A DNA stretch of 64,000 nt from Patescibacteria group bacterium (GTDB lineage: Bacteria > Patescibacteriota > Minisyncoccia > Phycocordibacterales > Phycocordibacteraceae), in assembly GCA_029260935.1 (NCBI GenBank), contig JAJDCJ010000016.1:19648-83647 (forward strand), given 5' to 3'. Below, in pieces: positions 10,800-52,923 of this stretch. Positions within the stretch are counted from its first letter, which is position 1, and every line of letters starts with the position of its first letter. Below the pieces are notes generated by a model. The model did not search any database. It had not been told where the DNA came from and worked only from the letters and a program-made list of their open reading frames with translations. Made by a program: the position numbers and the translations under genes.

Positions 10800-10917
10800 A
10801 ACACTCAGTTCTGGCGACTAGCTACTTTCCCCCAAAGAGTATCATCGCCACTACCATGCTTAACTTCCGAGTTCGGAAAGGGATCGGGTGTTTCCACGGC
10901 GTCAAATCACCAGAACT
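10800..10917 (-). rRNA. rrf: 5S ribosomal RNA
   Basis: Reverse complement contains GCCGTGGAAACACCCGATCCCTTTCCGAACTCGGAAGTTAAGCATGGTAGTGGCGATGATACTC...; ends close a long terminal helix. Confidence 0.85.
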
Positions 10918-10974: not shown

Positions 10975-14750
<3,776 letters not shown>

Positions 14751-40053: not shown

Positions 40054-41481
40054 CTATTGTTCTAAACGTGGGAAGAGGTTTTTTGGTTTTTTGTTTTCAA
40101 GCACTGCTTTTTTAATCAAGTCGCTTGTGTCAGGGAGCAGTGGTTGCAGTAGTATGCCGATCTCATAAAGGTCTTTAGTGAGTACCTGAATCATTTGAAC
40201 ACCTTTTTCTTTGTCTTCTTTTATCACTTTGAATGGCTCTTCTTCTGCAATACGTTCATCAAGCTCTTGGATACGGCTCCATACAAAGTCTGACGCTTGG
40301 TTAAACTGAAAGTTTTTAAACGCATCAACATACTCCTTCGGGAAAGACATCTCTTCAGGTTTCTCAAATGGAGTGTCAAGGTGCTGTTCTGCCAACTTCA
40401 TAATGCGACTCGTTAAGTTGCCAAGACCATTCACTAAGTCTGCTGTATACCATTCATCAAATGATTTCCATGAAGCATCAGAATCTTCAAATGGATGCGT
40501 GTGTCTTAGGTAAAAATAACGCAGTGCGTCTGTTCCATACTTTTCTACTACTTCAAACGGACTAATAACATTCCCTACCGATTTTGATATCTTCTCGCCG
40601 TTTATATTTATAAAACCATGAATATAAATCTGTTTTGACGTTGGTAAACCTGCCGACATAAGCATTGCCTGCCACATCGCTGCTTGTTGGCGCACCTGAT
40701 CTTTACCTGCAAACTGTATCACTGGCCACCATTTTTCAAACTGCACCATATCATCTGGCCAGCCAATAGTTGAGATATAGTTAATCAAAGCATCAAACCA
40801 TACGTACATCACCTGGGTGTCATCCCCCGGTACTGGAATACCCCATGGCATTTTTTCACTTAAACGTGAGATGGAAAAATCTTCCAAACCTTCACGCTCT
40901 ATAAGAGAAATTATTTCATTGATACGAGACTGTGGCACAACAAAACCTTTGTTTCTGTAAAGCGCAAGAAGTGTGTCCTGATATTTTGAAAATTTGAAAA
41001 AATAATTCTCCTCTTCAATAATTTGAATCTCATTTTTCGGATGCAGCGGACAGCATCCGTTCTCATCAAGTTCAGAATCAGTTTTTTCAAGCTCACACCC
41101 AACACAGTATTTAATTTTATAATTCTTTTTATATATATCACCGCTCGCTTCGCAAAGTTTCCAAAACTCTTGCGCAGCTTTTTTGTGAGTGGAGTCTGTG
41201 GTGCGGATGAAGCGGTCGTTACTTAAGTTAAGTGCCTCCTGTAACTCTTTGAACCTTGCCGCATAGCGGTCAGCATACTCTTGCGGTGTTTCGTTATTTT
41301 CTATCGCTTTTTCATATATTTTCTGCCCATGCTCATCGGTTCCTGTGTTGAATAGAACTTCGTGTCCGAGTAAACGATAGAGTCGCGCAGACGCATCTGC
41401 TTGTACAAATTCAAAAACATTCCCAACATGGGGGTCGGCGTTAACGTACGGCAGTGTGGTGGTTATATATATTCTATCCAT
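40054..41481 (-). CDS. metG: methionine--tRNA ligase (minimal form)
   Basis: P-YVNADPHVGN (HIGH), KISKSVGNVI (KMSKS), CVGCE zinc knuckle. Confidence 0.9.
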   Translation of the reverse strand: MDRIYITTTLPYVNADPHVGNVFEFVQADASARLYRLLGHEVLFNTGTDEHGQKIYEKAIENNETPQEYADRYAARFKELQEALNLSNDRFIRTTDSTHKKAAQEFWKLCEASGDIYKKNYKIKYCVGCELEKTDSELDENGCCPLHPKNEIQIIEEENYFFKFSKYQDTLLALYRNKGFVVPQSRINEIISLIEREGLEDFSISRLSEKMPWGIPVPGDDTQVMYVWFDALINYISTIGWPDDMVQFEKWWPVIQFAGKDQVRQQAAMWQAMLMSAGLPTSKQIYIHGFININGEKISKSVGNVISPFEVVEKYGTDALRYFYLRHTHPFEDSDASWKSFDEWYTADLVNGLGNLTSRIMKLAEQHLDTPFEKPEEMSFPKEYVDAFKNFQFNQASDFVWSRIQELDERIAEEEPFKVIKEDKEKGVQMIQVLTKDLYEIGILLQPLLPDTSDLIKKAVLENKKPKNLFPRLEQ

Positions 41482-41540
41482 AAAAATATAGCGACCGCGG
41501 TCACCTTTGAATAATACTAGGGTCGCTCGGTATCTGCAAT

Positions 41541-42623
41541 TTACGCAGTGTCTTCTTTTAGTGCGCGCATTTGTTCTCGCTTACGCTTTTCAACATCAGA
41601 AACTAATTCCTGAAGGGCGGCGGCAACTGGAACTGAAAGTAATATCCCTAAGAAACCGGCAAGTTGGGCACCTGCAATCAAAGCTAAAATAACCAAAAGT
41701 GGCGGTACGCCAACGATGCGTTTTACCACCAGCGGATATATCAAATTTCCCTGTATTTGGTTGATAACCAGATAGCCACCTCCTGCCAAAAGAGCTGTAC
41801 TGAGCCCCCCAAAAGTCCCCGCAACTAAAATTGCGGGTATTGCAGCTGCGAGTGATCCAAACACTGGCACCAGCTCAGCGACTGCCGCAAAAATTGCAAG
41901 CAAAAGTGCATACGGCACGCCGAGGACTGTCAGCCACAAGTAGGTAAGAACAGCTACGATGAGCGAGAGGAGTAACTGTCCTTGCATCCAGAGGCCAATT
42001 TTTATTTGCGAACGACGCCACAGACCCACTGCATATTTTTGATGTTTAACCGGCGTTACAATACGCAAAAAGTCGTCAATGCCTGTTTCTTGGATTGCAA
42101 AATAAAACGAAAGTAACATGATAATAAAAAACGAGAACACGCCACCAAAAATACCAGCAAGCGCCCGGAATGTTCCCTGTCCTGTTGACGCAAAGATGTC
42201 TCTGAACTGAGCAAGTGTTTGTGCAATAGACGTGGCATCAACGTTTGCAACCTCTTGTGTTGCGTTAATGATTTGATTTGAAACAAGACTGTCTAGATTA
42301 AAAGAGCTAAAGTATTGCGGAAGTGTTGCCACAAAGCCACTGGTCTCTTGAATTAAAGGGGGGACGAGCAGGTAAATAAAACTAAACAAGAGCCCGATGA
42401 TAATAAAGTACACTAACGCGACGGCGGCAGGCCGTATAACGCGGTGACGCATAAACCACAGCACCGCCGGCTCAATTGAAGACGAAATGACAATCGCCGT
42501 TAGCACAATAAGCACAAGGTCTTTTAGGAAAAAAAGGAGCCACACTGCAAGCACAATGCCGATAGCCGACAGTACCGTTGTAGGAGAAATGTGTATTACA
42601 AAAGAATTGTCTTTTTTTTCCAT
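41541..42623 (-). CDS. AI-2E family transporter (PerM/UPF0118)
   Basis: 8 TM topology and family blocks; ORF from 42644. Confidence 0.7.
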   Translation of the reverse strand: MEKKDNSFVIHISPTTVLSAIGIVLAVWLLFFLKDLVLIVLTAIVISSSIEPAVLWFMRHRVIRPAAVALVYFIIIGLLFSFIYLLVPPLIQETSGFVATLPQYFSSFNLDSLVSNQIINATQEVANVDATSIAQTLAQFRDIFASTGQGTFRALAGIFGGVFSFFIIMLLSFYFAIQETGIDDFLRIVTPVKHQKYAVGLWRRSQIKIGLWMQGQLLLSLIVAVLTYLWLTVLGVPYALLLAIFAAVAELVPVFGSLAAAIPAILVAGTFGGLSTALLAGGGYLVINQIQGNLIYPLVVKRIVGVPPLLVILALIAGAQLAGFLGILLSVPVAAALQELVSDVEKRKREQMRALKEDTA

Positions 42624-42695
42624 AAATACCCTTATCAAATGCACCGCTGTTTCCAGTGCCCGAGTAACCCTATCCTAGCATAGTTGCCCTTTACT

Positions 42696-43238
42696 TTAGG
42701 AAGTTACAAACTTTTCAAACGTACCTAAATAGGTATCAATGAAACTCTTTGTTTTCTCATCAGTCACCGTACCGTCCACCTGAAGTTTGTCTTGAACTCC
42801 CGAAAGGTAGAACTCTGGCTGGCCCATAACCTGCATATCAAAATAAACCAATATTGAGCGAAGGTGTTGTTGCATTTGTGCAGTGCCCAGACCCCCCATA
42901 GTGGCACCTACTATCGCCGCTTTCTTGCCGTTGAATGAGTTTTTACCCGTAGTTCCTGGTCGTGACCCCCAGTCTAGTGCATTTTTCAATACTCCAGGAA
43001 TTGAGCGATTATACTCTGGTGAAATAATAAGTATGCCGTCTGCGTGTTCTACTTTTTCCTTAAAGGCGGTAGCTGCTTCTGGAAAATTATCTTCCAAGTC
43101 AGTGTTGAGAAGCGGTAGGTCAATACTCACTTCTTCAAACGACAAACCGGCAGGTGCTTGTTTTTTAAATGCTTCAAAAAGCGCACGATTGTACGACTCT
43201 TTTCTCAGTGAACCAATAAGAATTGCAATTTTTTTCAT
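42696..43238 (-). CDS. NAD(P)H-dependent FMN reductase (flavodoxin-like fold)
   Basis: MKKIAILIGSLRKESYNRAL..., 180 aa. Confidence 0.75.
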   Translation of the reverse strand: MKKIAILIGSLRKESYNRALFEAFKKQAPAGLSFEEVSIDLPLLNTDLEDNFPEAATAFKEKVEHADGILIISPEYNRSIPGVLKNALDWGSRPGTTGKNSFNGKKAAIVGATMGGLGTAQMQQHLRSILVYFDMQVMGQPEFYLSGVQDKLQVDGTVTDEKTKSFIDTYLGTFEKFVTS

Positions 43239-43258
43239 ATACCTTCAGTATACATCCT

Positions 43259-43789
43259 TTATATTTTAAAAGTGTGGAGGGAACCATTCGGAATGTCTAA
43301 TTCTACACACTGGTTAAGTATCTTATGAAAAATGCGAACAGGACCTCTGCTGGTTACTACCAGCGCCGTGTCGTCTCCTTCTTTTTTAAGTTCTGCTAGA
43401 AAATCCCCTATCCTCTTTGTGACGTCCTCAACCGACTCTCCACCATAGGGGCGGTAATCATATTTCAAATTAACGTCAAGTTCTCTAAGCTGTTCTCCGT
43501 CTTCAAGGTCGTTAAAAGACTTACCCGCCAGCGACCCGTACTCACGTTCGCGAAGTGAGTCTTTGACCACAACATCTACGCCTATTTTTTTGTTAATAAT
43601 TTCTGCGCTTTGCAAAACGCGTTTTAGTGGTGAGGCATATATCTTTTTTATTCCAGTGGGAACCATACGTGCAAACTCCTCAATTTGCCTCACACCATTC
43701 TCGTTTAGCGGTCCATCTATACTCGCGCCCTGCAGTATCCCCCGTGCATTTTCATCAGTCTCTCCGTGTCGTACTACGTATAAAATCAT
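43259..43789 (-). CDS. histidine phosphatase family protein (phosphoglycerate-mutase-like)
   Basis: VVRHGETDEN (RHG motif), ASPLKRVLQSAE, 176 aa; adjacent to glyS. Confidence 0.8.
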   Translation of the reverse strand: MILYVVRHGETDENARGILQGASIDGPLNENGVRQIEEFARMVPTGIKKIYASPLKRVLQSAEIINKKIGVDVVVKDSLREREYGSLAGKSFNDLEDGEQLRELDVNLKYDYRPYGGESVEDVTKRIGDFLAELKKEGDDTALVVTSRGPVRIFHKILNQCVELDIPNGSLHTFKI

Positions 43790-43832
43790 GGAACTATTTA
43801 TTACTTCTTACTAAGGTCAGCTCGCTTCGCCG

Positions 43833-45152
43833 TTATTTTATTGCGTCAACAACTTTTTTAATCACCTCTGCTATTGGTAGACGTTCTTGTTCTCCCGTGT
43901 CGCGGTCGCGGACGGTTACGGTGTCTTTGTTCTCTGGCACTTCGCCGAGGGTGTCAAAATCAATAGTGATACAAAATGGCGTACCTATTTCATCCTGCCT
44001 TCGGTAGCGCTTGCCGATGTTGCCATTATCGTCCCACATTATCTGTGGCACTTCTTTTTTCAGCGTGTCATATACTTCGCGCGCTTTTGCTACCAACTCC
44101 GGCTTATTCTTCAAAAGTGGCGACACCATCGCCTTAACCGGCGCAAGCGACGGCTTAAACGCAAGGTATACGCGCTTTTCACCCCCGAGCTCGTCTTCGC
44201 GGTATGCGGACACCAAGACCGCGAGCACAGTGCGGTCAATACCGAGCGACGGTTCAATGATGTGAGGAGTGACATGTTCCTTATTTTCTTCGTCAAAGTA
44301 TGTCAGCGCTTCACCAGAGTGCTCGGTGTGTTTGACGAGGTCGTGGTTGGTGCGGTATGCAAGCCCCCACAACTCCTTTTGACCAAAGGGGTATGCAAAT
44401 TCAAAATCAATCGTTCGTTTTGAGTAGTGCGCGCGGTCATCCCCTTCTATTTCAACTTCGTGCACTTTACCGGCATCAATGCCCGTTGACTGAATAAACT
44501 CAATCATTATATTTTTCCACTCGTCAAAATATTTTTTCCACTCGCTTTCTTTTACAAAATATTCAACTTCCATTTGTTCAAACTCGCGTGCGCGGAAAAT
44601 AAAGTCACGGGGGGCTATTTCATTTCTAAACGCTTTACCAATTTGGGCAATGCCAAACGGCAGTTTTGGATTCATTGAATCCACTACGTTTTTAAAGTTT
44701 ACAAAAATACCTTGCGCGGTTTCAGGTCGCAGATACGAGGTGGTATCGCCCTCCGCACCAACTTTTGTTTCAAACATCAGATTAAATGCCTTTTGTTCAC
44801 TGAATGCTTCGCCACACTCTGGGCACTCCTCTTTGTTTTCTAAGTGGTCAGCACGAAATCTATGCCCTTTTTTACACTCAACCACCGGGTCGGTAAAACC
44901 GGCACCGGTGTGCCCGCTTGCTTCCCACACTTTTTCATTCATTAAAATTGCCGTGTCCACGCCGTATATGTCGTCACGACTATCAACAAACATCTGCCAC
45001 CACAGGTTTTTGATGTTGTTCTTGAGCGCAACACCGCGCGGGCCATAGTCCCACGTGCCGGCAAGACCTCCATAAATTTCGGAACCTTGAAACACAAAAC
45101 CACGCCTTTTTGCAAGCGATACTATTTTCTCCATCAGGTTTTCTTCTGCCAT
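43833..45152 (-). CDS. glyS: glycine--tRNA ligase (class II, dimeric type)
   Basis: N-terminus MAEENLMEKIVSLAKRRGFVFQGSEIYGGLAGTWDYGP typical of alpha2 GlyRS. Confidence 0.9.
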   Translation of the reverse strand: MAEENLMEKIVSLAKRRGFVFQGSEIYGGLAGTWDYGPRGVALKNNIKNLWWQMFVDSRDDIYGVDTAILMNEKVWEASGHTGAGFTDPVVECKKGHRFRADHLENKEECPECGEAFSEQKAFNLMFETKVGAEGDTTSYLRPETAQGIFVNFKNVVDSMNPKLPFGIAQIGKAFRNEIAPRDFIFRAREFEQMEVEYFVKESEWKKYFDEWKNIMIEFIQSTGIDAGKVHEVEIEGDDRAHYSKRTIDFEFAYPFGQKELWGLAYRTNHDLVKHTEHSGEALTYFDEENKEHVTPHIIEPSLGIDRTVLAVLVSAYREDELGGEKRVYLAFKPSLAPVKAMVSPLLKNKPELVAKAREVYDTLKKEVPQIMWDDNGNIGKRYRRQDEIGTPFCITIDFDTLGEVPENKDTVTVRDRDTGEQERLPIAEVIKKVVDAIK

Positions 45153-45161
45153 ATGCTCAAC

Positions 45162-47036
45162 CTACGGTACCACAATGCCTTCTTTGGAGGTAGGGGCGGC
45201 GCTTTGTGTGGTGAGCGAAGAAAGGGCGCGTTCAATTTGCGAGCGAGTAAAGCGGTCAAACCCATACACTCTTTGATCAGAGACAACTGTTGGCAACTGC
45301 CCTACTTGCGAGAGGGATGGTGTTACTCCGACCTGAAATGTCGTGGTGCGCGACTCTCCTGCAGTCAGGTCTCCAATATCCCATGTCACCACACCCCCAA
45401 TGTTATTGTACGAAATATTACTTGCTGCCGACTCAGGGGTAAACCGAACATAGCTCGGCAGTGCTGCCGCAACTGAAGCATTGGCAACGGCGTTCGCGCT
45501 ATTGGTTACCGTCCACGAAACACGATATATCGTTTCGCTGTCTGCCTTTGGAGGTTGCGGTCCTGAAATATATTGCAAAGTGCTCTTAAGCGCCAAGTCG
45601 GTTGCCACCAACAAACGAGATGTTGTTGAAGATTCAATAATTTCAGGTACACGGTCTTCAGTAACACGCCGTGCGCGCACTGTTGCCGTGAGTGTTATTT
45701 CAGGGTTTTTAAATACCCCCTCCTGTTTTGGTAACGTTGAGAGTGTAAACGAGTACAGCCCAGAGGCACCAGGAGCAACGTCAATAAGGGAACTGTCTGT
45801 TTCTCTGCTCCAGATAAGTGTATTGTCAAACGAGCGCCAAAAACCAGTTTGCGCAACAACGGTGTTGCGATCTAGAATAACACCGTCCAATTTAATTTCA
45901 ATTTCAACGTCTTGCGCGCGTGTTGGTAAATTATTAACCCATCGTATGTCGCCACGGATCTGTTCGCCACGAGTCACTGTTTTTTCTGTTGCAATTTCAC
46001 CATCCAAAGAAAGCACGAGTGAAATAAATGGTTTTGCCAACTTGAACGCAACGTCACTTGTTGCAAGAGGTGCTGAAATTTCATCTTTTGTCTTCTCACT
46101 CTCGCTTCCTGCGGTAAAATGCACGACCCGCTCATCATTGTCTTCTCCACTAAATGTCCCTTGAATAGTCACTGTGCGCTCCCCGCCCTGCTCAATGTCG
46201 CCCAAGCGCCAGGTGTTACTTCCCGTAACCGGGCTCGGGTTTGCTGAGTTAAAAGAAAATCCTGGTGGATATTCTGCAACCAAAAGAATATCGTTCAGTG
46301 TATCTGGTATGTTTGAGGATACTGTTACGGTAATTGCTGTTTCTTGCCCTGACACTATTTCTTGCAAAGACTCTACTGTAATTGATGCCGGCGATTGACT
46401 AATCGGGAGTGTATATTCGGATTCACTTACAAAAATTGCATTTGAAGATGTCACGCGATACTCAACCGAAACACCAATTGATACGTCAGTTGATGCTTGC
46501 CCAAACACCACTGCACGAATAGTCCTGTTCACACTTTCCGCCGGGTTAATAGTGCCGAGGGACTCACGAATGCGCGGTAGACGTATTGAAATGTCGGTCT
46601 CGCTGCGTGTTCCTTCGGGAAACTCAACAACTAAGTCCACAAGTTCCATTGGTACTGAGTTTTTGTTGGTAATTATAATTTGAAGTGGAATAGTCTCTCC
46701 TGCGCGAATTGATGTTGGCCCATCAAGCGCAATGGTTACATTACGCGTTGAAACAGTGTTGTTTCCAGAGAAAAACAAAAAACTAGCAAACACGCCAGCG
46801 ATAAGGAAAAAAACCACCGACCCCACAAAAAGGAGCTCTGAAAAATTAAAACGTTTTCTCTTTTTCTTAGAAGGGGTGGGTTTTTCCCACATGGGGCCAG
46901 TGCGTTCGCGGGCACCACCAAGCGAAGAGCGTCTAATATTCAAATTCTCCTTTTGGCCGTTGCGCGAGTTGAGTTTTTTGGCGAGTCTATCAAGAGCACT
47001 TTTTTTTTCCTCCATACGCTCTCTAGTATACCCCAC
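45162..47036 (-). CDS. hypothetical single-pass membrane protein with large beta-rich extracytoplasmic region
   Basis: Basic cytoplasmic N-terminus, TM FVGSVVFFLIAGVFASFLFF, about 540-aa repeat-like ectodomain. Confidence 0.55.
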   Translation of the reverse strand: MGYTRERMEEKKSALDRLAKKLNSRNGQKENLNIRRSSLGGARERTGPMWEKPTPSKKKRKRFNFSELLFVGSVVFFLIAGVFASFLFFSGNNTVSTRNVTIALDGPTSIRAGETIPLQIIITNKNSVPMELVDLVVEFPEGTRSETDISIRLPRIRESLGTINPAESVNRTIRAVVFGQASTDVSIGVSVEYRVTSSNAIFVSESEYTLPISQSPASITVESLQEIVSGQETAITVTVSSNIPDTLNDILLVAEYPPGFSFNSANPSPVTGSNTWRLGDIEQGGERTVTIQGTFSGEDNDERVVHFTAGSESEKTKDEISAPLATSDVAFKLAKPFISLVLSLDGEIATEKTVTRGEQIRGDIRWVNNLPTRAQDVEIEIKLDGVILDRNTVVAQTGFWRSFDNTLIWSRETDSSLIDVAPGASGLYSFTLSTLPKQEGVFKNPEITLTATVRARRVTEDRVPEIIESSTTSRLLVATDLALKSTLQYISGPQPPKADSETIYRVSWTVTNSANAVANASVAAALPSYVRFTPESAASNISYNNIGGVVTWDIGDLTAGESRTTTFQVGVTPSLSQVGQLPTVVSDQRVYGFDRFTRSQIERALSSLTTQSAAPTSKEGIVVP

Positions 47037-47042
47037 CGGGGC

Positions 47043-47630
47043 TTAGGTGAGATTACTGGCAAGGAGTGCCTCGTTGATAGTTTTGATAAGCTGTCGCTCG
47101 TAAAACACCAAGTCTTCCACTGTCTTAGTGTCATATTCTATGCTTTCTAAATACGGAATACCGTGAGTATCGTCAACATACCCAAGAGCATACACAATAC
47201 GCGCAACCGTTACATGCTCTGCAACGCGTACGTGGCCCTTGGAAAAATCCGGAAGGTTTTCTAAAAAGTTCCAAAGTGCCCCAAACAGCTGTTCACTGTA
47301 CTCTTCCCCGTGCACCAACTGTCGCACTACACTCAACACGCGTGCGTACGCTTTTTGTGCGTAGTCTTTTTCAGAAAGTGTAAAATGTGTGTTTTTTGTA
47401 TCAACAGAACCAGTAATACGCCATCCTGTTTTTCCTTTTACTAACGTGTACAGACCAAAAGACCCAACCTGTAGGTGCGCACGCAGTTTTGAGCGCTCTT
47501 CTCGTGCGCTTTTTGCAAAACCGGTGACTAATCCCAAGTGTTCAGTATATAAAAATATCCGCGCACTTCCCTCACCTGCCTGTCCGCGGCCAATAACAAC
47601 TGCTCGTGTGGTAACTTCGTTATTTTTTAA
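47043..47630 (-). CDS. recO: DNA repair protein RecO
   Basis: N-terminal OB domain pattern; start set at MLKNNEVTTRAVVIG to avoid 82-nt overlap with ileS. Confidence 0.65.
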   Translation of the reverse strand, partial: LKNNEVTTRAVVIGRGQAGEGSARIFLYTEHLGLVTGFAKSAREERSKLRAHLQVGSFGLYTLVKGKTGWRITGSVDTKNTHFTLSEKDYAQKAYARVLSVVRQLVHGEEYSEQLFGALWNFLENLPDFSKGHVRVAEHVTVARIVYALGYVDDTHGIPYLESIEYDTKTVEDLVFYERQLIKTINEALLASNLT

Positions 47631-50600
47631 CATTGATTGGTGTGCCCTTTTCAAAACCAGAAAGCCCCGCAACTCGGCTAATTTCATCCCAGTGTTTCTC
47701 AAGCAAGGTCGTATCCTCAGGAGTCACAAAAACTGCAGTATCTTTCGGCGACAGTTCTGCTTTTTTACGCAATCCTTGAATAGTACGAATTAACTCGCGT
47801 ACGTCTCCCTCTTCTTGTAACGCGGGTGTAATAGTAGTGTCTAACACTACTTCAGGTTCATTTTTGTTTCCTGATTCAAAAATAACCTGTTTTACATTCA
47901 CCTCGTCTTGTATCAAAGGAACAACCATATCCCAGTACTTCGGTGCCTCCTCTGAAGAAAGGATAGTGAGTGTGCTGAGTGGCTGTCGTACTTTAATCCC
48001 TTTTTCAGAACGCTCCATCAATGCCATACTCACAAAAGAACGAGCGACTACCATAGTGTTGAGAAGCTCTTGGTCAAATTCACGAACAGTACACCAACTG
48101 GCAAGGTGAACACTCTCCACATCATTCTGACGCATAACTCTTTGCCAGAGCCACTCAGCTATAAATGGTGTAAACGGTGCAATTATTTTTGCATACTTGC
48201 GGAGAACCCAACGCGTTGTTTGCAGTGCTGCTTTTTTGTCTTTCTCATCACTCCCTTTAAAACGGTCACGTGATCGTCGCAGATACCACGTTGACAGGTC
48301 GTCAATAAAATCAGCAAACGGACGTGACGCTTTATCAATTTTGTATGCATCAAGGTTTTCAGTAACTGTTGTATGGAGCTCTCGCGTACGCGCAATAATC
48401 CACTGATCAAGTGGGTGGGTACTGTCCGAGGAATCAGTGTGCTCAGTGCTATCTGCGTATAGTTCATAGAGTGTGTATGAATTAAGAAGTCTAGTGAAGT
48501 TCTTTTTCACTATTTCATCAACCGTCCGCTCATCAAAGTTTTTAGAAGCCCCGGGTTCGTTGATGGTGTACATCCAATAGCGCAGTGCATCAACACCATA
48601 TTTTGAAAACAGTACCCAAGGATCAATAACATTACCCACTGACTTCGACATCTTTTGTCCTTTGCTATCCAAGAGATGTCCAAGGGAGATAACATTTTTG
48701 TATGCATGACCACGCTCCATCAACACACCAATTGCATGAAGTGTGTAAAACCACCCCCGGGTCTGGTCAATCGCCTCTGAAATAAAATCAGCTGGATACC
48801 CTGAACCCTCCACCCTCTCTTTGTTTTCAAATGGGTAGTGATCTTGTGCAAATGGCATAGATCCTGCATCAAACCATACATCCAACACTTCCGGTGCACG
48901 TACCAACGTCTTCCCGCTCGCGCCAACGATTTCTATTTCATCAATAAACGGGCGGTGAAAATCTAGTTCGTATTCACGGTTATGTGGTAGTGGTGTGAAT
49001 GAAAAATCACGCACCTCGCCAGTAGTATAATAGTCAAGAGTCTTCATTTTCATTGCAATCGTTCCTTTCTGGTCTACTCCTTGTGCAATAGCATCCAGCA
49101 TCCATGCTGGATATTCATGTGCAACAAATAGAATATTTTTTCCTTGATACTTTGCCTCCGTTTCGTAAAGAAATTCACCAATCCTACGCTTCAGTTGTAC
49201 CAGTGTCTCACCGCCTTTTGCTGCTTTTTCAAACATAACCTCATAACTACTCCCAAAAAACTCACGCATTTCCTCAACCGGTTTTCCATCAAGCTCTCCA
49301 AACTTAATTTCAGCAATGCGCTCGTCAAATATAATATCTTCTTTTGAAAAACCAATACTGTCGGCAACGAGCTCTGCGGTCTCTTTCGCGCGCAATACTG
49401 GCGAGCTAATAATGTAATCAATTTTTTTATCCTTAAGGGAGTCTGCTGACTTTTTCACCTGCTGTGTACCAAGTTCGGTAAGATGATTTTCTTTACTGCC
49501 TTGATCAAGGTTATTGTTTGCATTGCTATACGCTTGTCCGTGTCGCATTACAAAATAGGAGTTACCGCTTTTCTTTGTTTTCTCCTTTAGTTCATCCAAA
49601 GACCCGATAACAACCACTTCATCAGTTTCTTCATCCGTCCACACAGGCATCGGCGTTCCCCAGTAACGCGCACGCGACACTGCCCAGTCTTTTACTTCTC
49701 TCAACCACTCACCAAAACGCCCCTCTTTAATGTGTGCCGGTTCCCAGTTAATTTTTTCATTTTCCTTAACGAGCGTGTCACGAAGTTCAGACATACGGAT
49801 ATACCACGAATCAGTTGCATAATAAATCAGTGGATTTTTACAACGCCAACAAAACGGATATGTATGAGTCACCTCTTCCGTTTTTAGAAGAAGATCTCTT
49901 TCGTTTAGATTCTCAATAATTTTTGTATCTGCCTCTTTAACAAGCGTCCCAGCAAAGTCTTTAACATCATCAGAAAAACGACCTTCAAGAGTTACGAGGT
50001 GATGTCTTGGCAAGCCAATTGCCACCCCAAGCTCAAAATCGTCTGTGCCATACATAACTGCAGTGTGTACAATACCGGTACCGTCTTCTGTCGTAACAAA
50101 ATCTGCCTCATACACGGTATAGGCCTTAGGAACCTTGTGTTTCTCTTCCTCAGGAAGTGAATCTAAAAGATACTTAAATAATGGTTCATATTTCTTCCCT
50201 GCTAGAGCTGAACCCAACATTTCTTCCATAACCTCATATTCATCAAAAACTTTTTCTGCCTGTTCTTTTGCGACCCAAAGAAATTCATTACCAACCTTTA
50301 CCTTTACGTAAGAAATATCTTTTCCCACCGCAAGCGCCACGTTTCCAGGAAGTGTCCACGGTGTTGTGGTCCACGCCAGAAGATATTCATTTTTAGCATC
50401 CGCCATCGGAAATTTTACATACACCGAGGTGTCTGTTACTTCTTTATACCCCTCGGCAACTTCATGACTTGAAAGTGCTGTCCCACATCGCGCGCACCAC
50501 GGCACCACTTTGTAGTCCTTGTATAAAAGACCGCGCGTATGTGTATGCTGAAAAATATTCCATACCGACTCAATATAATCGTTTGAAAATGTGAAATACG

Positions 50601-51045
50601 TACTGTCGTGATCTACCCAAAAACCAATACGATCGCTGAACTCCTTCCACTCGTCAATGTAGCGGTGCACGCTGGCAAGACATTTTGCATTAAATGCCTC
50701 AACACCATATGCTTCAATATCTTTTTTACTCGTGAGACCGAGCTCCTTTTCAACCGCAAGCTCAACAGGAAGTCCGTGCGTGTCCCATCCTGCCTTTCTT
50801 CTGACGTGATAGCCACGCATAGTTTTGTAGCGTGGTATAAGGTCTTTAAAAGCCCTTGATTCTAGGTGATGAAGCGCTGGATGATTGTTTGCCGTTGGCG
50901 GTCCTTCATAAAAAACAAACTCACCATTTGGGGTTGGCTTTTCAAGTGATTTTTGAAAGATGTTATGTTCAGTCCAAAACGCAAGGATTTCTTCTTCTCG
51001 CTTTGCAGTTTCGGATATTTTTACCTCCGTATCCATAATGGTCAT
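47620..51045 (-). CDS. ileS: isoleucine--tRNA ligase carrying an inserted histidine-phosphatase (RHG) domain
   Basis: HIGH/KMSKS class I core, editing domain; about 200-aa insertion (aa ~496-693) with RHGQ...SSPVLRAKETAE...VAHE motifs between conserved VIGSLDEL and LDFHRPFIDEI blocks. Confidence 0.9.
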   Translation of the reverse strand: MTIMDTEVKISETAKREEEILAFWTEHNIFQKSLEKPTPNGEFVFYEGPPTANNHPALHHLESRAFKDLIPRYKTMRGYHVRRKAGWDTHGLPVELAVEKELGLTSKKDIEAYGVEAFNAKCLASVHRYIDEWKEFSDRIGFWVDHDSTYFTFSNDYIESVWNIFQHTHTRGLLYKDYKVVPWCARCGTALSSHEVAEGYKEVTDTSVYVKFPMADAKNEYLLAWTTTPWTLPGNVALAVGKDISYVKVKVGNEFLWVAKEQAEKVFDEYEVMEEMLGSALAGKKYEPLFKYLLDSLPEEEKHKVPKAYTVYEADFVTTEDGTGIVHTAVMYGTDDFELGVAIGLPRHHLVTLEGRFSDDVKDFAGTLVKEADTKIIENLNERDLLLKTEEVTHTYPFCWRCKNPLIYYATDSWYIRMSELRDTLVKENEKINWEPAHIKEGRFGEWLREVKDWAVSRARYWGTPMPVWTDEETDEVVVIGSLDELKEKTKKSGNSYFVMRHGQAYSNANNNLDQGSKENHLTELGTQQVKKSADSLKDKKIDYIISSPVLRAKETAELVADSIGFSKEDIIFDERIAEIKFGELDGKPVEEMREFFGSSYEVMFEKAAKGGETLVQLKRRIGEFLYETEAKYQGKNILFVAHEYPAWMLDAIAQGVDQKGTIAMKMKTLDYYTTGEVRDFSFTPLPHNREYELDFHRPFIDEIEIVGASGKTLVRAPEVLDVWFDAGSMPFAQDHYPFENKERVEGSGYPADFISEAIDQTRGWFYTLHAIGVLMERGHAYKNVISLGHLLDSKGQKMSKSVGNVIDPWVLFSKYGVDALRYWMYTINEPGASKNFDERTVDEIVKKNFTRLLNSYTLYELYADSTEHTDSSDSTHPLDQWIIARTRELHTTVTENLDAYKIDKASRPFADFIDDLSTWYLRRSRDRFKGSDEKDKKAALQTTRWVLRKYAKIIAPFTPFIAEWLWQRVMRQNDVESVHLASWCTVREFDQELLNTMVVARSFVSMALMERSEKGIKVRQPLSTLTILSSEEAPKYWDMVVPLIQDEVNVKQVIFESGNKNEPEVVLDTTITPALQEEGDVRELIRTIQGLRKKAELSPKDTAVFVTPEDTTLLEKHWDEISRVAGLSGFEKGTPINVKK

Positions 51046-51267
51046 CCTATCACAACCACTACTTTAGAATAACTATCCCAAACGGTCTCCGTCATCGGGC
51101 CCCGCTCCTTTTTCTTCTTTCTTTTTTTCTTCCCCTGATTTTTCTCCTCCCTTACTGCTAAGAGGTTCAAAAAAATCCTCAAACTCCTTTTGATCTGGTA
51201 CGTTGTCTTCTTTAGAATACAATCTTGTATACCCCTCACTTCTTTTTTCAGTCATATACACACTGTA

Positions 51268-52923
51268 TTACATTCTCTCAGGTGCTTCAATCCCCAATAA
51301 CCAGAGCCCGTTTTTCATAGTAAGGGCAAAAGCACGTGTCAAAGCCAGCTTATATGCCTCATATTCTGCATCAATAATTCTTTCCTGCCCATACCAGCTA
51401 TTAAAAGCACCTGCAAGTTCAGTAAGGTATGTGGTGACATAGTGTGGTTCGTATTCTTGAGCCGCGCGCTCCACTACACTTGGAAATCGTGGTAACAACC
51501 GTTCAAACTCAGGAATGAGCTCCGGAGCTAATTCCTGAGTTAATTCAGGAGCTTTTTTTACGTCACCTGCTTTTTCCAATACGCTTTTCGCGCGCGCATA
51601 ACTGTACTGTAGGTAGGGTCCCGAATCACCCTCAACGGAAATTGATTTTTCAAAATCAAAAATAACATTCTTTCCAGAACTGCTTCGCAAAAACGCATAC
51701 TTAAGAGCGGCAATGGCAACGTGTTCTGAAACATTTTCGTCTCCGCGGGATTGTTTTTTAGAAACGATGCTTTTTACTTGATCAATCAGGTCTTCGGCAA
51801 GGGGCACGTTGCCGTATCGCGACGACACTTTACCGCCTTCAAAACGCAGACGCCCATGTTGCCAATATAAGGAATTCTCTCCCCATGTTTTATTAATAAG
51901 AGTCGCCGCTTTTTTAATAACTTCAAAATATTGCTTCTGTTCAATGTCAGTTACTACAATTGAAATGTCTGGGTTATATTTTTCAAACTTAAGTTTCAAA
52001 AGACCGATGTCTTTTGATTCATACACCGGTAAATCCTTTGAGGTAATAAACACACGCGTATGGAGTCCGTATTCTTCGCCTTTAAAAATAACTGCCCCTT
52101 CAGATTTTTCAAAAACGCCGGGGGTATTATCAAGCACTATCTGTTTTCCTATAACCCCAGACTCACTTTCAAAAAACATACCAGCAAACTCAGAGCCGAG
52201 GCGTTTTGCTATTGTCTTAAAATAATTTAAATTAAGTTCGCGTCCTTTTTGGTAGACATTCCACACATCGCCTTCTTTTTGACTATTAAGTGCAACGTTG
52301 ATGTCATCTATTTCTTCTTTCGTTTCTTTACTATCTTCATACTGCTTCGTTCCATCGGCATACGCCTCGCCCATTGTGTTAATAGAAAGCTCATTCTCCT
52401 TTTTATTTTTGAGTATTGACCACACCGCTTTTGCTACCCCTAGTGAAATATCAGACGGATAGGAAATGTTTACAACGCTGGCGCCTGCAAACTGTGCAAT
52501 GCGAGAAAGAGACTCCCCTATCGCTGTATTTAATAGATGTCCAACGTGAAAAGGTTTAAACAAGTTCGGTTGTGCATACTCAACTAAAATCTTTTTTCCT
52601 TTCAGGGACTGTCCTTCTCCCCACTCGTCGTCAATGCTTTTAACCACGTCAACAAAATAGCGACGTGAGAGATAAAAGTTAATAAACCCTGGACTCACTG
52701 CTTCTATTTTTTCTATCCCCTCAATAGCACCAAGCTCTGCAACAATTTTTTCAGCCAATTCTTTTGGGTTCACTTTTGCCTCTTGAGAGGCCACCATCGC
52801 CACATTACTGGAAAAATCTCCGTGCGAGAGATCTGCTGGGTATTCCACCTTCGGTTCAATACTATGAATACCAAGCTTTTTAAGAGCAGTTTGAATAGAC
52901 TCTTTGACTCTCTTTTCAATCAT
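51268..52923 (-). CDS. argS: arginine--tRNA ligase
   Basis: HVGHLLNTAIGESL (HIGH), C-terminal DALR anticodon-binding domain; 551 aa. Confidence 0.9.
   Translation of the reverse strand: MIEKRVKESIQTALKKLGIHSIEPKVEYPADLSHGDFSSNVAMVASQEAKVNPKELAEKIVAELGAIEGIEKIEAVSPGFINFYLSRRYFVDVVKSIDDEWGEGQSLKGKKILVEYAQPNLFKPFHVGHLLNTAIGESLSRIAQFAGASVVNISYPSDISLGVAKAVWSILKNKKENELSINTMGEAYADGTKQYEDSKETKEEIDDINVALNSQKEGDVWNVYQKGRELNLNYFKTIAKRLGSEFAGMFFESESGVIGKQIVLDNTPGVFEKSEGAVIFKGEEYGLHTRVFITSKDLPVYESKDIGLLKLKFEKYNPDISIVVTDIEQKQYFEVIKKAATLINKTWGENSLYWQHGRLRFEGGKVSSRYGNVPLAEDLIDQVKSIVSKKQSRGDENVSEHVAIAALKYAFLRSSSGKNVIFDFEKSISVEGDSGPYLQYSYARAKSVLEKAGDVKKAPELTQELAPELIPEFERLLPRFPSVVERAAQEYEPHYVTTYLTELAGAFNSWYGQERIIDAEYEAYKLALTRAFALTMKNGLWLLGIEAPERM

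Follow-up and report, generated by a model that had tools for sequence, protein, structure and literature searches.

A histidine-phosphatase domain nested in type 2 isoleucyl-tRNA synthetases of Patescibacteria

Described relatives and the composite ileS product

Solved isoleucyl-tRNA synthetases (IleRSs), such as IleRS2 of P. megaterium (8C8U, 8C8V, and 8C8W) and the T. thermophilus enzyme (1ILE), carry no domain at the tip of their zinc-knuckle hairpin, and the sequence blocks flanking this position are contiguous. In the stretch of DNA analyzed here (64,000 nucleotides of contig JAJDCJ010000016.1 from a Patescibacteria group bacterium, assembly GCA_029260935.1; hereafter the window), ileS (47620..51045, minus strand) encodes a 1141-residue type 2 IleRS of the same family and fold (template modeling (TM) scores to these targets, 0.81–0.92; E ~1e-230), in which a histidine phosphatase of 200 residues occupies this position and the zinc-knuckle cysteines are gone. 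The likeness to the P. megaterium and T. thermophilus IleRSs extends to the type 2 C-terminus with DUF5915 and to the swapped G/AxHH signature.

The inserted domain also has described counterparts. PspA (4IJ5), GpgP Rv2419c (4PZ9), PhoE/YhfR (1H2E), CobC (6NRU), and the riboflavin-pathway phosphatase HFP (9MMH) have the same fold, size, and catalytic residues, and the insert presumably shares the phospho-histidine mechanism of such small branch-1 phosphatases. However, these are stand-alone metabolic proteins, whereas the insert belongs to a subfamily that is nested in ileS or encoded beside it. Its closest relatives are stand-alone phosphatases encoded next to ileS (such as P0200, P0212, P0319, and P0374), which have the same N-x-Y-x-x-R-H-G start and the same G-E-x-R-x-L final strand and carry no annotation beyond "histidine phosphatase family protein" or "PhoE". 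They differ from the insert in that they are separate polypeptides, that the partner IleRS keeps the CxxC...CxC knuckle, and that the loop after RHG...N, which is SSWPE in the stand-alone forms, is different.

Modules that follow the WGxPxP strand and precede the second Rossmann half and the KMSKS loop occur in related synthetases; we take the leucine-specific domain of bacterial leucyl-tRNA synthetase (LeuRS) and connective peptide 3 (CP3) of valyl- and isoleucyl-tRNA synthetases to be of this kind. Such modules are small, non-enzymatic, and aid the handling of the acceptor end, whereas the insert is a complete second enzyme, and whole extra enzymes are rarely acquired by bacterial aminoacyl-tRNA synthetases (aaRSs). 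NCBIfam NF040702 (ileS_w_GNAT) provides a precedent for an IleRS with an extra enzyme domain, and NF005567 (RNase H/acid phosphatase of the Rv2228c type) for a branch-1 phosphatase joined to a nucleic-acid enzyme. The ileS product scored below the cut-offs of both models (322.8 against 1999 and 88–90 against 326 bits, respectively), and in both the partner and the site differ from those found here. The functions of these two fusions are poorly understood, too.

In public databases, the nested homologues are annotated as "isoleucine--tRNA ligase" or "class I tRNA ligase family protein". For IleRS, as for every other aaRS, the searchable portion of the full-text literature, including recent papers on IleRS evolution and structure, makes no reference to a phosphatase domain, and the AARS Online paper has a table of aaRS domain superfamilies without a phosphatase. 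The initial annotation of the window, made from its sequence alone, had taken the architecture to be undescribed, and the searchable literature agrees with it. The protein joins two known folds in a conserved combination that is undescribed in the searchable literature and probably functional.

Pfam analysis of the ileS product identified tRNA-synt_1 as two stretches (E = 1.9e-120), Anticodon_1, DUF5915, and, between the tRNA-synt_1 segments as the initial annotation had expected, PF00300 (His_Phos_1) at residues 498–668 (49042..49554, minus strand; E = 2.2e-31; 109.5 bits against a gathering threshold of 21.7). For the insert alone, the PF00300 match was 114.5 bits (6.4e-33). The whole protein passed the NCBIfam equivalog model for ileS, TIGR00392 (870 bits; cut-off, 621.4), and aligned with 1ILE at E = 3e-233; in a Foldseek search with the full AlphaFold2 (AF2) model, the top matches were the IleRS2 structures 8c8w and 8c8v together with 1ile. 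The initial proposal that a histidine phosphatase is nested in IleRS was confirmed by these results.

The 120 best homologues, with 53–68% identity to the ileS product, were collected. PF00300 and the IleRS domains occur together, in frame, in all 120 of them, from independent assemblies, and the named taxa among them are Paceibacteria, Kaiserbacteria, Campbellbacteria, Vogelbacteria, Parcubacteria, and Patescibacteria. The GC content across the insert of the window gene is even (0.41–0.45). No Hint/intein domain was detected in the Pfam scan of the ileS product; the insert begins with S-G-N, its end is followed by E-L-D, and PF00300 accounts for the whole of it, so that the initial view that it is not an intein holds. 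Because 120 independent homologues have the same architecture, chance, a frameshift, and an assembly chimera, the last two of which had been named initially as possible sources of error, are excluded, and the nested architecture is that of a real gene. An artefact or selfish element, that is, a chimera, a frameshifted gene pair, an intein, or a decayed non-catalytic filler that replaced the zinc knuckle, has a negligible probability in our estimate: at least 120 independent assemblies agree on one in-frame architecture of uniform composition, and the nested loci of the Genome Taxonomy Database (GTDB) described below refute the artefact likewise. The evidence on the filler is given in the next section.

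Catalytic residues and site of the insertion

Alignment with insert-less Patescibacteria IleRSs placed the limits of the insert at about residues 493 and 692 (48970..49569, minus strand), including a conserved SGN junction at the N-terminal side and an LPHN junction at the C-terminal side; Pfam, AF2, and Foldseek support the same module, and the range of 48967..49560 proposed initially was essentially right. The N-terminal IleRS part (residues 1–492; 49570..51045, minus strand) comprises the first Rossmann half, the editing domain of connective peptide 1 (CP1), and the first half of the zinc-knuckle hairpin, with its cysteines lost. The C-terminal part (residues 693–1141; 47623..48969, minus strand) comprises the second half of the hairpin, the second Rossmann half with KMSKS, the anticodon-binding domain, and the type 2 C-terminal domains.

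The catalytic set of the phosphatase is complete. It consists of the RHG motif R501-H502-G503 with the predicted nucleophilic histidine (49537..49545), the second phosphate-pocket arginine R552 (49390..49392), the presumed general acid E579 (49309..49311), and the second catalytic histidine H643 (49117..49119), all on the minus strand. R552 lies in the motif SSPVLRAKETAE and H643 in ILFVAHEYP; these two motifs and FVMRHGQ, on which the initial annotation relied, are all present. In the 120-sequence alignment, N495, R501, H502, T523, G526, R552, and H643 are invariant, and G503, N508, R576, E579, E613, and R621 are conserved in at least 90% of the sequences, with R576, E579 (95%), E613, and R621 at 95% or more. 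The claim of an intact RHG catalytic set therefore stands, R501, H502, R552, E579, and H643 being 95–100% conserved. The overall identity to the query across the same sequences was about 43% for the insert and about 63% for the synthetase core. Purifying selection on phosphatase chemistry would be expected to leave such a pattern, and catalytic residues that stay fixed while the rest of the domain drifts are not expected of mere filler.

The insert was modeled as an alpha/beta/alpha phosphoglycerate-mutase-like fold (Foldseek probability, 1.00). The nearest solved folds of the insert-only model were PspA, GpgP, PhoE, CobC, and the riboflavin-pathway phosphatase, with TM scores of 0.70–0.78 and identities of 20–27%, all of which are small-molecule phosphomonoesterases of about 200 residues. 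The best NCBIfam match of the insert was a short archaeal model of cofactor-dependent phosphoglycerate mutase (dPGM). The scores of the insert were below the equivalog cut-offs of the dPGM models NF038349 (95.8 against 225) and TIGR01258 (29 against 81.7) as well as those of CobC (79.4 against 162.9), PspA (67.7 against 350), and SixA (44 against 74.5), the weak SixA match spanning only the first ~70 residues. The stand-alone relatives likewise fell under every equivalog cut-off (92–102 against 225 for NF038349). Transfer of function from dPGM, CobC, PspA, GpmB, or SixA was rejected because all scores were below the cut-off. A search with the PADLOC defence models gave no family for the insert, for the stand-alone relative P0200, or for a 176-residue PF00300 protein encoded elsewhere in the window. 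The phosphatase fold and the mechanistic class are secure, and the substrates considered below are candidates.

The active-site motifs of the synthetase are also conserved. The class I signature HxGH is replaced by A-L-H-H at residues 57–60 (50866..50877, minus strand), with G/AxHH in 118 of the 120 homologues, and the KMSKS loop motif is located at residues 798–802 (48640..48654, minus strand), with KMSKS in 115 of them. The CP1 editing motifs W225–L232 (WTTTPWTL), G322, G324, V326, H327 (GTGIVH in the query), and D336 are invariant in all 120, and the editing region matched the isolated editing-domain structures 1WK8 and 1UE0. The C-terminal organization, with DUF5915 at the C-terminus, is that of type 2, the eukaryote-like form of bacterial IleRS, and the target TM score was 0.81 for the IleRS2 structures 8c8w/8c8v compared to 0.78 for the IleRS1 structure 8c9e (21% identity). 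In the NCBIfam scan, the MupA/MupB models were the next best after the ileS model, with scores below their exception cut-offs (NF000257 and NF000258; 749–757 against 1900 bits). The synthetase is predicted to be a complete, editing-competent type 2 enzyme, and the equivalog score and the conserved synteny in the 64-kb window suggest that it aminoacylates tRNA-Ile as the sole IleRS of the genome. Brkic et al. (PMC10485003) showed that the G/AxHH signature works in IleRS2 alone, where it brings about mupirocin hyper-resistance; on this basis, the present IleRSs of the candidate phyla radiation (CPR) are predicted to be mupirocin-insensitive.

In the alignment with 1ILE, residues 10–482 of the chain corresponded to residues 13–492 of the query and residues 488–819 to residues 694–1015. 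Because the two blocks are contiguous in the solved structure, about 200 residues are inserted between them. The flanks of the insert (PVW...VVVIGSLDELKEK before it and LDFHRPFIDEIEIVG...RAPEVLDVWFDAG after it) match the small hairpin that bears CxxC...CxC in the T. thermophilus IleRS and in the insert-less Patescibacteria IleRSs; this hairpin follows the WGTPxP strand and precedes DVWFDxG, with which the second Rossmann half starts. The insertion point, at about residue 480 by this alignment, is outside the HUP core of the P. megaterium IleRS2, which consists of residues 40–168 and 513–632 (PMC10485003). The insert thus sits at the tip of the peripheral zinc-knuckle hairpin; this part of the connective-peptide region precedes the second Rossmann half and is distinct from the catalytic core, where the initial annotation had placed the insert. 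This site is presumably the topological equivalent of that of the leucine-specific domain in bacterial LeuRS, near the KMSKS loop and the acceptor end.

Among the 120 nested proteins, all four zinc-knuckle cysteines are kept in 35 and none in 81, including the window protein. Because 35 proteins have both the insert and all four cysteines, the domain entered an intact zinc knuckle and the metal site was lost later. The loss of the cysteines in the 81 proteins would suit a filler to which the structural role of the knuckle had passed. However, the 35 proteins keep all four cysteines alongside the insert, and the catalytic residues are invariant in a domain that otherwise drifts.

The AF2 model of the full protein had a predicted local distance difference test (pLDDT) score of 93 and a predicted TM score of 0.87, with pLDDT values of 91–98 in the insert and 95–97 in both linkers. 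When the insert was modeled in isolation, its overall pLDDT was 91 and that of the C-terminal LPHN linker was 57. The LPHN junction is 85–95% conserved in the nested family. The difference in linker pLDDT and the conservation of LPHN suggest that the phosphatase is joined to the synthetase by a rigid, packed connection and not by a loose tether.

Phosphatase genes adjoining ileS and the origin of the insert

The insert alone was searched against 1.84 billion cluster representatives, and the best 150 matches were examined. IleRS sequence was present on one or both flanks, at the same site, in 95 of these 150, and no other aaRS carried the insert among them. The best non-IleRS matches were complete proteins of about 187–205 residues with 35–43% identity, from Staskawiczbacteria, Parcubacteria, and other Patescibacteria. 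All seven stand-alone phosphatases whose neighborhood was looked up adjoin an insert-less ileS: six lie directly upstream of ileS with a gap of 1–4 nucleotides (nt), and one is convergent with it, whereas argS is separated from the phosphatase by distances of 3 to more than 1600 nt. The upstream phosphatase gene and ileS are probably translationally coupled. The partner IleRSs lack the insert, pass TIGR00392, and differ in type, with HYGH/KMSKH in one contig (L001) and GVHH/EMHKS in two others (L003 and L005). A tie between the phosphatase and the G/AxHH motif was rejected since the HYGH-type IleRS also has an adjacent phosphatase.

A metagenome scan with an alignment of one stand-alone subfamily yielded 80 loci, 71 of which had enough downstream sequence. 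In 54 of the 71, ileS starts within 400 nt downstream on the same strand; in 6 more, it starts within 2 kb, and another 6 have the nested form, giving 66 loci with ileS within 2 kb or nested. As a control, 80 IleRS2 loci of GTDB species representatives were collected with a full IleRS alignment. The phosphatase was nested at the same position in 11 of these, the record titles of which include Patescibacteria, Minisyncoccia, Yanofskybacteria, Paceibacteria, Spechtbacterales, Peregrinibacteria, and Peribacteria, and the Peribacteria locus has two tandem phosphatase copies. No His_Phos domain was found inside the gene or within 3 kb in any of the remaining 69, which belong to Chloroflexota, Actinomycetota, Bacillota, archaea, one Saccharimonadales, and one other Patescibacteria. 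The lineage-specific link between aminoacylation and a phosphatase that was proposed initially is supported for IleRS by the adjacent stand-alone genes (7/7), the metagenome loci (66/71), and these controls (0/69).

In a neighbor-joining (NJ) tree, all nested inserts fell into one clade beside the stand-alone family. The insert descends from the ileS-adjacent phosphatase gene and is not foreign to ileS. In the simplest history, a single copying event would have placed that gene inside ileS, and its stand-alone version would have disappeared afterwards. In the window, the argS-ileS intergenic region (51046..51267), where sister lineages have the stand-alone phosphatase, is free of phosphatase genes, and the insert's subfamily has no further copy within the 64 kb. 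The locus illustrates cleanly how a neighboring gene can turn into an internal domain where a hairpin is permissive, the zinc site being lost afterwards.

Several IleRSs contain two phosphatase domains (P0220, P0259 with the cluster members P0385–P0389, P0262, P0265, and L034 4489..5670). The two copies are in tandem at the hairpin, or the second copy is located near the position of query residues 866–876; in these split forms, it follows the KMSKS region and precedes the anticodon-binding domain. The catalytic residues are kept in both copies. The 1419-residue protein P0259 was found on six contigs of up to 1.06 Mb. A 1161-residue protein encoded on 3.9-kb contigs (P0126) has an N-terminal IleRS half and four histidine-phosphatase repeats without the C-terminal IleRS half; the gene call is degenerate or chimeric, or else the architecture truly differs. 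Outside IleRS, TsaC/YrdC (PF01300) is joined in frame to a member of the ileS-linked phosphatase subfamily with the same SGN-YF-MRH junction (P0234; L174 977..2140). The gene of this fusion is flanked by genes for a HAD hydrolase and a PD-(D/E)XK nuclease-like protein. An AlkB-like fusion (P0269) was below the Pfam cut-off and had a context unlike that of CPR; it was treated as irrelevant.

The phosphatase and ileS are part of a larger block. In the window, argS (51268..52923, minus strand) is the upstream member, and recO (47043..47702), a gene for a DUF11-repeat protein (45162..47036), and glyQS (43833..45152) form the downstream part (43833..47702, minus strand). The order argS-[phosphatase]-ileS-recO-DUF11-glyQS is kept in distant Patescibacteria contigs (L001, L003, L005, L007, L008, and L092). 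This raises the question of whether the phosphatase is merely a passenger: a housekeeping small-molecule phosphatase of the PhoE, PspA, or short dPGM kind could by chance have stood beside ileS in the ancestral block and been copied into a permissive surface hairpin, the two activities being independent and the fusion harmless and compact in a minimal genome. The synteny of the whole neighborhood, including recO and the DUF11 protein, for which no link to IleRS is expected, speaks for this explanation, as do the metabolite phosphatases that are nearest to the insert in fold and sequence, the short archaeal dPGM model as the best NCBIfam match, and the tolerance of the hairpin to the loss of four cysteines in 81 of the 120 nested proteins. 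However, the adjacency persists with different IleRS types and in a convergent arrangement, and the gap to ileS is only 1–4 nt when that to argS ranges from 3 to more than 1600 nt. Extra copies have been recruited into IleRS in tandem and at a second site, no other protein class is dominant among the fusion partners, and the linkers are conserved and modeled as rigid. In addition, the family lacks the H-G-N motif, which we take to be that of true mutases. On balance, an independent passenger appears rather unlikely, though it deserves serious consideration.

Proposed coupling to the synthetase and possible substrates

We favor the view, with a probability of roughly 0.7, that the IleRS carrying the phosphatase is a bifunctional enzyme that made an older two-gene partnership of IleRS and phosphatase permanent by fusion. 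Coupling of the two activities is suggested by the gap of 1–4 nt to ileS against the variable gap to argS, by an adjacency kept across IleRS types and gene orientations, by the repeated recruitment of extra copies into IleRS, and by exclusivity to IleRS together with conserved linkers modeled as rigid. We infer from these features that the two enzymes work together. A catalytically intact phosphatase has stayed with IleRS across many Patescibacteria lineages, be it as an upstream gene or within the synthetase, in one nested copy or sometimes two; as a natural "Rosetta stone", this association suggests that the IleRS of these minimal-genome symbionts requires, or profits from, hydrolysis of a phosphoryl group, a step outside textbook aminoacylation.

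Several points weigh against such a bifunctional enzyme. As no equivalog cut-off is reached, no function can be transferred to the domain, and its nearest characterized relatives act on metabolites unlinked to translation. In the metagenome scan, the loci belong to relatives of a single subfamily and do not count as independent samples; argS is upstream in 65 of 70 of them with the whole block syntenic, and because the synteny is block-wide, the adjacency may be inherited and not selected. The IleRS2 loci of Saccharimonadales and one other Patescibacteria have no phosphatase, and IleRS therefore does not need one in general. The TsaC fusion is known from a single contig of 3.7 kb. Inorganic pyrophosphate (PPi) and AMP are released by all aaRSs, yet the domain occurs only in IleRS. 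To our knowledge, no branch-1 member acts as a pyrophosphatase or removes phosphate from RNA ends. An inorganic pyrophosphatase was reported for Peribacteria (PMC4736985), a group with the nested form, and the idea that the domain belongs to organisms without pyrophosphatase was rejected as unsupported on this ground.

By the standard mechanism of the superfamily, His502 would attack the phosphorus, Arg501, Arg552, and His643 would hold the phosphate, and Glu579 would protonate the leaving group. The domain would thereby hydrolyze a phosphomonoester or a terminal phosphoanhydride. Its rigid position on the synthetase would probably be close to the KMSKS loop and to the point where the synthetic site opens. 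One tentative candidate for the substrate is a small phospho-compound that takes part in the adenylation half-reaction, such as PPi or some nucleoside phosphate, and would be removed locally as a product or inhibitor; a metabolite unrelated to the synthetase is an equally conceivable one. The substrates suggested initially, among them Ap4A and tRNA cyclic phosphate, are speculative. The TsaC product threonylcarbamoyl-AMP, made along with PPi, serves the t6A37 modification of tRNA-Ile and other tRNAs, and TsaC itself binds no tRNA. Since adenylate formation with release of PPi and, later, AMP is common to TsaC and IleRS, the TsaC fusion tips the guess toward an adenylation compound over the 3′ end of tRNA.

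Repair of tRNA ends by the phosphatase domain, and with it a 3′-terminal phosphate on tRNA-Ile as the substrate, is unlikely in our view. Analogous activities are the phosphatase activity of the HD domain in the E. coli CCA-adding enzyme and the hydrolases that reverse tRNA pyrophosphorylation by toxSAS toxins, and the rigidly modeled connection, the presence of a tRNA-handling partner enzyme in 95 of the best 150 matches, and the presumed equivalence of the site to that of the leucine-specific domain, close to the KMSKS loop and the acceptor end, would be in keeping with such a role. However, the need for end repair is common to all tRNAs although the domain occurs only in IleRS, the TsaC fusion partner is not a tRNA-binding protein, and we know of no member of the histidine-phosphatase family that acts on RNA ends. 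The charge of the domain gives no sign of an RNA-binding surface, as it tracks the proteome of the lineage: the isoelectric point (pI) is about 5.5 for the nested forms and about 9.9 for the stand-alone forms, as for their IleRSs. Charge and pI were set aside as uninformative with regard to RNA binding.

The domain could also be directed at its own host protein, removing an inhibitory phosphate from IleRS, for example from a serine of the KMSKS loop, and so countering a HipA-like kinase toxin. Known targets of such toxins are GltX and TrpS, and the superfamily includes the protein phosphatases SixA, PGAM5, and Sts. The association with one particular synthetase, the 1:1 stoichiometry implied by translational coupling or fusion, and the weak, partial SixA match are consistent with this idea. 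However, the closest enzymes by sequence and fold are small-molecule phosphatases rather than SixA, Sts, or PGAM5; the neighborhood lacks a conserved kinase, and no PADLOC defence model was matched. IleRS as a phosphoprotein substrate is therefore quite improbable, and the full scenario with a kinase toxin is more doubtful still.

Returning to the bifunctional enzyme, a more specific form of it is possible but should not be called probable: the phosphatase may be a new catalytic accessory module of an aaRS, mechanistically coupled to isoleucine activation or tRNA-Ile charging and interchangeable between operon partner and nested domain across much of Patescibacteria. Such a module might hydrolyze PPi, a nucleotide product, or an inhibitor locally at the adenylation site, or clear a blocking phosphate from the 3′ end of tRNA. 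The substrate could reveal a step of quality control or product removal in translation, a tRNA repair activity, or resistance to an IleRS-directed inhibitor; with regard to the last option, the nested enzymes also carry the mupirocin hyper-resistance motif.

Neighboring genes of the window

The window encodes a second PF00300 member, a free-standing protein of 176 residues (43259..43789, minus strand) located next to glyS, which the initial annotation had regarded as a paralogue of the insert. It does belong to PF00300, but to a distinct and distant subfamily: its identity to the insert is 28%, and it was the outgroup in the NJ tree. Among 70 relatives, serine is present at the position of the second catalytic histidine in 60%, and a histidine near the C-terminus (H172) is conserved in 88%; the active site may be a variant one. 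The association of the protein with glyS is weak, one relative being encoded near glyQS and one from Kaiserbacteria adjoining gyrA. A close paralogy was rejected on the basis of the identity, the outgroup position, the serine, and the inconsistent context. The four synthetase loci metG, glyQS, ileS, and argS lie within 13 kb (40054..52923, minus strand). The argument from two aaRS-associated copies of one phosphatase fold fails, as this neighbor is distant and the region is dense in aaRS genes.

As listed, the recO open reading frame (ORF) begins with TTG and shares 83 nt with the 3′ end of ileS, and its true start is probably internal and further downstream. In relatives, ileS and recO are separated by an ORF of 129–169 codons for a charged protein without a Pfam match (L001 9459..9923, L003 9496..9927, L005 9436..9825, L007 8485..8922, and L008 8603..9112). 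It was rejected as a third partner since it is of low complexity, unconserved, and absent from the window.

The 23S rRNA gene (10992..14750, minus strand) is 3759 nt long compared to 2925 nt for the Rfam model. No long ORF was found in the 23S insertion. A match to the group I intron model RF00028 lies inside the gene (11370..11609, minus strand; 47.9 bits with a gathering threshold of 50; E = 2.8e-10), and the 23S rRNA gene is followed by a 5S rRNA gene (10809..10914).

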